Position numbers and translations under genes: made by a program. Under the pieces are notes generated by a model. The model made no database searches, had not been told where the DNA came from, and saw only the letters and a list, made by a program, of their open reading frames with translations. Positions 136-923 of a stretch of DNA of 19,628 nt are shown one piece after another; positions within the stretch are counted from its first letter, which is position 1, and each line of letters begins with the position of its first letter. The stretch is from positions 1-19,628 of the forward strand of contig JBGAGQ010000089.1 of the NCBI GenBank assembly GCA_044226625.1, in the 5' to 3' direction. Source of the stretch: Thermoanaerobaculia bacterium (GTDB lineage Bacteria; Acidobacteriota; Thermoanaerobaculia; Multivoradales; UBA5704).

Positions 136-157
136 GTACCAGCCGATTCGAGCCCAG

Positions 158-192
158 GATAACCCAGGAGGGTCCGAGAAAACGATAGTTTT
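158..192. repeat. Left arm of a 35-bp inverted repeat
   Basis: GATAACCCAGGAGGGTCCGAGAAAACGATAGTTTT matches the reverse complement of 708-742 (GATAAACCAGGAAGGTCCGAGAAAGCGATAGTTTT) at 32/35 positions. Confidence 0.9.
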
Positions 193-354
193 CCGGAGGT
201 CTCGAGAATTTGTCCGGGCCGCGACGTGCCTCCTGCGGCACCGCCGGCTCTCGGGGTGAGCCCCGGGGCTCGAACGGGGTCTTGGAGAGCCGATCCGGGC
301 GAAACTCCGCTCGATTCGGGGAGGTTCCGGCCGGTGCGGCCGGCCGGTCGGACG

Positions 355-610
355 GAATCGATGGCCGAATCCGGTCCATTCGAGGATCGAATCCACTGGA
401 TGCGGCGGCCGAATCCGGCCAGGCGACGGCCGACTTCAGCGATTCCACGGCGGAATGCAGAGGATGCGACGGCGGAATCTTGCGGATTCGCCGGTGAATC
501 CAGTCGATTCGATGGCGGAATGCGGTGGGTGCGACGGCCGAACCCAGTCGATGCGACGGCCGAATCGAAGGCTGGAACCGGAGAATCAGCGTCTACGGCG
601 GCCGAATCGA
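355..610. repeat. Degenerate tandem array, ~12 units of 21-22 bp, consensus ~GATKCGACGGCSGAATCC
   Basis: GAAT/GAAC/GACT core starts at 367, 389, 411, 432, 453, 475, 496, 518, 540, 562, 583 and 604 (spacings 21 or 22). Weaker in-phase units may start at ~292, 313 and 333. Confidence 0.85.
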
Positions 611-707
611 CCCAAAACTTCGCTGTAACGCCGGATCGGGCCAGTCCATCGGGCACGGTCCGTCCGATGGGCCGAGAGTCCTCCCCGCGAAGGTAGATCT
701 CTCTCCA

Positions 708-742
708 AAAACTATCGCTTTCTCGGACCTTCCTGGTTTATC
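708..742. repeat. Right arm of the 35-bp inverted repeat
   Basis: AAAACTATCGCTTTCTCGGACCTTCCTGGTTTATC is the inverted copy of 158-192 with 3 mismatches. Confidence 0.9.
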
Positions 743-923
743 GTCGGGAAGACCGGGGTGAAGTGACGCTCGTCGAACCCGGGGCCTGGACGATTCTGGG
801 AAGCGTGGTCGGCCTGAACGCCTCCCGAGAAGGGGCGTCGAAGACCGGGCGCCTCGGCGCTATCCGATAGAGTCGCCGGGTGAGCCCTCGTCGTAGCGCC
901 CCGTTCTCCGCTTCCTCGGTCCG

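Follow-up and report, generated by a model that had tools for sequence, protein, structure and literature searches.

The closest described counterpart of the element analyzed here is BrickBuilt of Porphyromonas gingivalis, which, in the parts of its published description used here, has imperfect 23-nt tandem repeats enclosed by a leader and a tail, with 12-nt TIRs (PMC4596501). BrickBuilt lies between genes in 19 copies per genome, reaches a length of 991 nt, and has units that are 89–100% alike, IS5-like ends, and target-site duplications that are inconsistent or missing; the same parts of that report describe MITEPgRS/464, a MITE with 41-nt repeats (PMC4596501). BOX elements of Streptococcus pneumoniae have the organization boxA-boxB(n)-boxC and, according to the sections of the source that deal with their structure, are 67–637 bp long, intergenic, present in many copies per genome with MITE-like features, and thought to act as transcribed RNA structures (PMC3049150). 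REP clusters sit between genes and, as stated in an extract of the relevant report, can be tandemly reiterated (PMC3733652). For invertons, the excerpted source gives a length of <300 bases for >75% of the 10,983 invertons in one data set (PMC11602134).

The DNA analyzed here (the window; 19,628 nt) originates from an Acidobacteriota chromosome that is Thermoanaerobaculia-like. At its left end, a gene for tRNA-Arg (anticodon ACG) lies on the minus strand at 2–78 with its 5' end toward the element (ARAGORN; Rfam tRNA, 65.9 bits). On the other side of the element, a gene for a priming sugar-phosphate transferase with Bac_transf and CoA_binding_3 domains lies on the plus strand at 924–2336 (Pfam; Bac_transf E value, 4.7e-60). 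The transferase gene is monocistronic and convergent with mnmA. The window otherwise has a housekeeping content and also encodes a class-V aminotransferase, a VWA protein, a MacB/FtsX permease, a PEP-mutase-family enzyme, HPPK, rpoD, dnaG, and mutS2. Between the convergent transferase gene and mnmA, we noted two GC-rich hairpins at 2398–2419 and 2496–2519 (CCTCCCCC...GGGGGAGG), which are likely terminators. At the corresponding place in one relative (L001, 7471–7515), there is a match to the Acido-Lenti-1 RNA with 38.3 bits, while no such match was found in the window at E values up to 1.

A first-pass annotation of this DNA had described inverted copies at 158–192 and 708–742 that are identical at 32 of 35 positions. 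Using a repeat search, we recovered this pair (91.4% over 35 nt) and found that it extends to two 40-nt arms at 153–192 (plus) and 708–747 (minus), which are complementary at 35 of 40 positions (88%; arm divergence, 12.5%, i.e., 5 of 40 positions differ) and lie 515 nt apart. The unit bounded by these inverted repeats, 153–747, is thus 595 bp long. In 200 dinucleotide-preserving shuffles of 1–1200, the maxima were 26/35 and 29/40. The best-conserved part of the arms is the inner 22 nt (21/22), and this core occurs twice in the 19,628 nt, both times in the arms (expected from 200 shuffles, 0.00). The left arm has a 6-4-6 dyad, GAAAAC-GATA-GTTTTC, at its inner end (178–193; sequence reading), and the right arm has an imperfect copy of it at 707–722. 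The GC content is 0.52 at 151–210 and 0.47 at 691–750 vs approximately 0.58–0.80 nearby. By inspection of the sequence, no direct repeats adjoin the arm ends, neither at 153/747 nor at 158/742, and there is thus no target-site duplication for either choice of ends. The earlier descriptions of the arms as more AT-rich than their flanks, of the dyad in the left arm, and of the missing target-site duplication therefore all hold.

The interior of the element has three parts, which were delimited based on sequence and motif spacing. A GC-rich, non-repetitive spacer, the leader (193–361), connects the left arm to a degenerate tandem array, and a second non-repetitive spacer, the tail (621–707), connects the array to the right arm. 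TRF placed the array at 389–566 with a period of 22 nt, 8.2 copies, and 67% matches. Based on motif spacing, the array (plus strand) widens to 362–620 and comprises ~12 degenerate units of 20–22 nt with starts from 362 to 599, and autocorrelation in this region peaks at 22, 43, and 65. The unit approximates CGGCCGAATCC-N5-GATKCGA, and many units have a GAATC/GATTC dyad. Leader and tail do not form a long foldback by complementarity; the inner pair 341–356/659–674 was matched in 26 of 500 shuffles and is not significant.

The interior is non-coding. In the four longest ORFs of the region, the GC content by codon position is flat (0.61–0.72), while GC3 values are 0.79–0.91 in 10 of the predicted genes in the window, and a Pfam scan of three of these four ORFs gave no match. 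A search of a protein collection with the translations of two element ORFs, aimed at spurious gene calls on other copies and covering two of the six frames and proteins of near length, identified no relative at E ≤ 0.01. Among the 34 ORFs scanned in the window, none had a transposase or recombinase domain. The first-pass observations of a periodic array between the arms, of the absence of a credible ORF, and of the absence of a transposase or recombinase gene in the window were accordingly borne out. Two candidate explanations for the array were considered and rejected: coding repeats, based on periods of 20 and 22 nt, which are not multiples of three, and on the flat codon-position GC, and, on visual inspection, a sponge RNA of the CsrA type, since some units lack GGA.

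By architecture alone, and to the extent covered by the parts of the sources cited above, the element resembles BrickBuilt and MITEPgRS in having terminal inverted repeats, a leader, a tandem array, and a tail and in being intergenic and non-coding. It differs from BrickBuilt in its 40-nt arms, in the single copy seen, in array units with 67% matches, in that no parent IS was seen, and in belonging to another phylum. BOX is a looser match, again compared by architecture only and as far as the sections on its structure go: flanking modules surround a variable tandem array. A boxB unit far exceeds 22 nt in length, whereas the window array has 22-nt units and a single copy was seen. On the same partial basis, each arm, like REP, BIME, and REPIN sequences, has its own short palindrome, and the two are in inverted orientation. 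REPINs are ~100 nt long, occur in many copies, and have a cognate RAYT transposase; neither a RAYT nor a GTAG/CGTC tag pair was seen here. As in the invertons of Bacteroides and others in the excerpted source, a segment of a few hundred bp with inverted repeats at its ends precedes a polysaccharide gene, but no invertase is encoded in the window, no internal promoter was found, and the segment is longer than most invertons. Iteron arrays of plasmid origins and tandem-repeat plasmid centromeres consist of direct repeats approximately two helical turns apart. The window array shares this spacing, but there is no rep or par gene nearby, the context is chromosomal and housekeeping, and the units are degenerate. 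The statement in the first-pass annotation that this architecture matches no named element was too strong; the BrickBuilt layout of inverted-repeat ends, leader, array, and tail is published, and the BOX plan, in the parts of the report that describe it, is similar.

For a comparison of the site among relatives, we searched genome contigs with the transferase and obtained 80 loci (891,269 nt). These loci are from MAGs labelled Acidobacteriota, Thermoanaerobaculia, or Holophagales, and the best transferase proteins are 82–87% identical, with 86–87% for the top match. A tRNA scan covering 60 of the 80 loci detected tRNA-Arg(ACG) upstream of the transferase gene only in L001, L002, and L003. In these three, the distance from the tRNA to the transferase start is 156–174 nt vs 845 nt in the window. 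Colinearity with the window extends over ~7.7 kb in L001 and L002 (tRNA, transferase, mnmA, aminotransferase, VWA gene) and up to the end of the contig in L003. Using blastn and alignment, we found that the sole large difference is the replacement of 56, 57, and 41 bp in L001–L003 by 726 bp of window-specific DNA (137–862), with homology ending at 136 and restarting at 863. Hence, the site is empty in all three syntenic relatives, which represent other species rather than strains. In the next clade (L004–L006), a metalloprotease gene lies upstream instead of the tRNA, and a short region of ~150–200 bp without the element precedes the same conserved box.

In a tree of the transferases, the window and (L003,(L001,L002)) are sister groups. 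Because of this position and because L004–L006 also have no element, a gain of the insertion in the lineage of the window would be the simpler history; formally, one deletion in the common ancestor of L001–L003 could have had the same outcome. Because the 41–57-bp spacers of the relatives have no similarity to 137–862 beyond that of shuffles, the exact ends of the insertion cannot be fixed. The left arm begins 16 nt past the end of homology, and 115 nt separate the right arm from the point where homology restarts. Beyond the right arm, the window-specific DNA at 748–862 (sequence, blastn) has a 10-nt direct repeat, GAAGACCGGG, at 748–757 and 840–849 that brackets 82 nt and is present on the right-arm side only. 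Outside the left arm, a 13-mer, CCAGCCGATTCGA, at 139–151 matches the array units at 500–512 (12/13) and 544–556 (11/13). This likeness could be due to chance, or the inserted DNA could begin before the arm.

The first-pass annotation also proposed that the arms are duplicated, outward-facing promoter or operator sites for the tRNA and the transferase genes. On the tRNA side, the block at 1–136 is conserved with L001–L003 in the alignment. Based on sequence and invariant alignment columns, we infer promoter-like boxes on the minus strand at 107–135, i.e., a −35 box TTGCCG (135–130), a 17-nt spacer, and a −10 box TATTCT (112–107) located ~29 nt upstream of the tRNA; with 8 of 12 matches, these putative boxes are under the threshold of the promoter scan. 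On the transferase side, a plus-strand block at 864–890 (CCGATAGAGT...GTGAGCCC) with a −10-like TAGAGT at 868–873 is common to the window and L001–L006. This box lies 121 nt outside the right arm and is also present in genomes without the element. Of 75 loci examined, 53 have an 8-mer of the type [GT][AGT]TA[GA]A[GA]T no farther than 120 nt upstream of where the transferase gene is estimated to start; we put the chance expectation at <0.01 per locus. In many distant relatives, the box TA[GA]A[GA]T is only 5–15 nt before the estimated transferase start codon, and the mRNA in these organisms would then have a short leader or none. A simple scan for sigma-70-like promoters, with rules that do not cover this phylum, returned none in 1–1100. 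Because the conserved transferase box is outside the element and is also present in element-free genomes, twin outward promoters or operators at the arms are disfavored, and the idea of an on/off switch is weakened; the conserved boxes of both genes (107–135 and 868–873) are outside the arms.

No further copy of the element was detected in the material searched. The window has no second copy of the element, and the core is confined to the two arms. In blastn searches of 100–900 against the 80 loci (891,269 nt, all from other species), only the flanks in L001–L003 matched, and a fuzzy search allowing up to 10 mismatches in the 40-nt arm and up to 4 in the 22-nt core had no match in these loci. 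A search of plasmid and phage collections with 140–870 in a distant mode also gave no match. As all of these sequences belong to other species or replicons, the negative results are only slightly informative about the genome from which the window comes. No transposase with matching ends was seen, and there was no arm-like sequence in the 80 loci, the plasmids, or the phages. Searches of Rfam with the whole window and ten of the relatives' loci at arrays or repeats identified no family for the element or for the relatives' arrays and repeats.

Tandem arrays of similar period are present elsewhere in the lineage. TRF on the 80 loci (891 kb) identified 25 tandem tracts of at least 120 nt, of which 17 have a base period of 20–22 nt. 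For three of these 17 arrays (in L006, L009, and L052), which overlap ORF predictions, coding heptads are a possible explanation, and a doubtful ORF covers part of the array in L046. The remaining 20–22-nt arrays are intergenic and often abut the 3' ends of genes (listed here together with that in L046: L011, 1924–2173; L014, 484–684; L015, 4372–4653; L017, 4573–4874; L025, 313–472 and 8187–8421; L028, 3875–4109; L030, 1113–1468; L035, 12568–12824; L044, 3956–4149; L046, 4674–4925; L051, 3602–4008; L060, 755–1051; and L071, 1346–1626). The relatives' arrays have 6–19 copies, often with a dyad in the unit. Their units are unrelated to that of the window, and among 15 array units, only the orthologous pair in L014/L025 and one pair inside the L071 array are related beyond shuffles. 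The arrays are also sporadic: 4 of 64 loci with a match to MTHFR have an array at the 3' end of MTHFR, and these represent three units (one shared by L015 and L017, one in L028, and one in L046). In the 12 arrays examined, none was flanked by long inverted repeats.

Simple slippage does not account for a constant period in arrays whose sequence varies freely, and we found no literature on such fixed-period arrays in a search limited to open-access papers. The window array could be an instance of a lineage-wide class, in which Thermoanaerobaculia-like genomes would repeatedly acquire intergenic arrays with a 20–22-nt period but unrelated units, often with a dyad in each, in which some shared process or constraint (for instance, a phased protein scaffold or ruler-like generation of repeats) would make or keep these arrays, and in which the copy bounded by inverted repeats would be a moved or inverted form beside a surface-polysaccharide gene; we regard this interpretation as distinctly improbable. 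Close to one of the array-bearing regions, in L015, a TIR-domain and TPR protein is encoded on the minus strand (869–2185).

The relatives also have a dispersed family of inverted repeats, which occupies many intergenic sites, is unrelated to the arms in the window, and is built on CCTCACCCC...CCCCTCTCCC/GGGAGAGG. Its arms are 35–54 nt long, each with its own inner dyad, and are separated by 100–135 nt. In nine relatives, a member lies between MTHFR and the same transferase gene, directly upstream of the latter (L015, 5708–5948; L034, 5741–5937; L026, 5694–5883; L045, 424–610; and L028, L033, L047, L049, and L054). Other sites include L034 7427–7576 and 12067–12177, L014 12241–12396, and L069 12673–13148. 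The search for inversion of the interior of these elements between species recovered full-length matches in the same orientation only. Thus, repeat elements have recurrently landed or grown in the intergenic space upstream of the transferase gene in this lineage, and arms with an inner dyad are a local theme. Two further features of the relatives' loci are a SAM-I/IV riboswitch match in L014 (4273–4391, minus strand; 50.1 bits) between MTHFR and a same-strand gene of ~1167 aa, and 8-nt tandem tracts of 8.5 and 10.9 copies in L002 (1712–1789 and 1902–1988) directly 3' of the transferase gene.

Based on these data, we tentatively favor the possibility that the segment is a decayed, non-autonomous MITE-like insertion carrying an internal minisatellite. 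In this scenario, non-coding DNA would have inserted, in a lineage-specific manner, into the divergent promoter region between tRNA-Arg and the priming glycosyltransferase gene. A transposase supplied in trans would once have bound the arms, likely at the inner 22 nt including the 16-bp dyad, and moved the unit, and the length of the array may have changed up or down via slippage. The copy would since have decayed to arms that are 12.5% diverged and array units with 67% matches, and it is probably now immobile and near neutral. Because both conserved boxes sit outside the element, its main effect would be to place the neighboring promoter-like boxes ~0.7 kb farther apart.

Several observations are in agreement with a MITE-like insertion. 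The arms match at 35 of 40 positions and enclose a small (595 bp) non-coding unit, the site is empty in three of three syntenic relatives, and the left end of the window-specific DNA (137) is at most 16 nt from the left arm. Moreover, dispersed inverted-repeat elements and intergenic arrays abound in the lineage, and BrickBuilt and MITEPgRS, as far as the source describes them, provide a precedent for tandem-array MITEs, as does BOX for the modular plan. Against this reading, there is no target-site duplication, no second copy or parent IS was seen in the material searched, the arms do not delimit the indel exactly (16 nt on the left and 115 nt on the right), and 40-nt arms are much longer than the 12 nt of BrickBuilt. 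The first-pass annotation had made the MITE-like model depend on an empty site in relatives. With such a site in all three, the model stands and is the best supported of the three models offered there (MITE-like element, invertible switch, and twin promoters), while a target-site duplication and a cognate transposase were not found.

An unlikely alternative is that the segment arose locally and was never mobile. Its spacer would have grown via a slippage minisatellite and an inverted duplication, or would have been gained by recombination, and no transposase would ever have acted on the arms. The single copy seen in the window and in 891 kb from other species, without a target-site duplication, fits this explanation, as do window-specific DNA (137–862) that exceeds the part bounded by inverted repeats and the array-unit-like 13-mer outside the left arm (139–151; 12/13 to 500–512). 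The "naked" 20–22-nt arrays of the relatives, sporadic at intergenic sites (4 of 64 MTHFR-match loci at the 3' end) and with long flanking repeats in 0 of 12 examined, point in the same direction. However, a 40-nt inverted duplication symmetric about 515 nt requires a separate event, and the left arm begins nearly where homology to the relatives ends. We give less credence to the segment being an inverton, i.e., to a recombinase encoded elsewhere that flips the 515-nt interior and thereby alters expression of the transferase or the tRNA. The segment between the inverted repeats precedes a gene for the initiation of surface-polysaccharide synthesis, a gene class reported for invertons in the excerpted source (PMC11602134), and a recombinase acting in trans is compatible with our data. 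Yet, none of the 34 ORFs in the window has a recombinase domain, the scan, with rules that do not cover this phylum, detected no sigma-70-like promoter inside, and the transferase gene has kept, 121 nt beyond the right arm, a conserved −10-like box that element-free relatives also have. Also, the element is absent from three of three syntenic relatives, its arms differ at 5 of 40 positions, and its 595 bp are long for a class in which, in the data set summarized in that source, >75% of 10,983 members are <300 bases (PMC11602134). The unrelated inverted-repeat elements upstream of the transferase gene in nine relatives are likewise found in full-length interspecies matches with the same orientation only.

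We also consider it improbable that the segment is a functional array of DNA-binding sites, in which the 22-nt units and the dyads of the arms would bind a regulator or a structuring protein, much as iterons or centromere-like arrays do, and the arms could be looping operators or twin promoters. The regular 20–22-nt spacing of approximately two helical turns, with ~12 units of which many have a dyad, fits such an array, and the finding that 17 of the relatives' 25 tracts of at least 120 nt share this period while their units are unrelated is a hint that the period, and not the sequence, is constrained. On the other hand, no replication, partition, or regulator gene adjoins the segment, the element is absent from close relatives, arrays are sporadic, the units are degenerate (67% matches), and the conserved promoter-like boxes are outside the arms. 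In addition, outside the dyads the arms have a further 24 nt in common in mirror orientation, which is expected from a duplication and not from convergent operators. Least probable, and in our view highly so, is a large structured RNA gene with ends paired through the 40-nt arms. Both strands of 140–760 do fold better than shuffles (z score, −4.7; 0 of 20 shuffles each), but the arms account for this signal; for the interior by itself, the z score is −1.45, and 9 of 100 shuffles are as good. Apart from the tRNA, no Rfam family was found at threshold in 1–1100 searched at E values up to 10, both putative neighboring promoters point away from the segment, and the segment is conserved in 0 of 80 relatives.

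If the segment is a decayed MITE-like insertion, it would be ordinary genome litter, and it would also be the first described composite MITE-like repeat with an internal minisatellite in this uncultured Acidobacteriota lineage. The element lends no support to a phase-variable capsule switch. Its main use would be as a warning for annotation and as a marker of intergenic turnover beside a capsule/EPS initiation gene. With many arrays that share a period and a second family of inverted repeats at the same transferase gene, the pattern may merit a genome-wide census.
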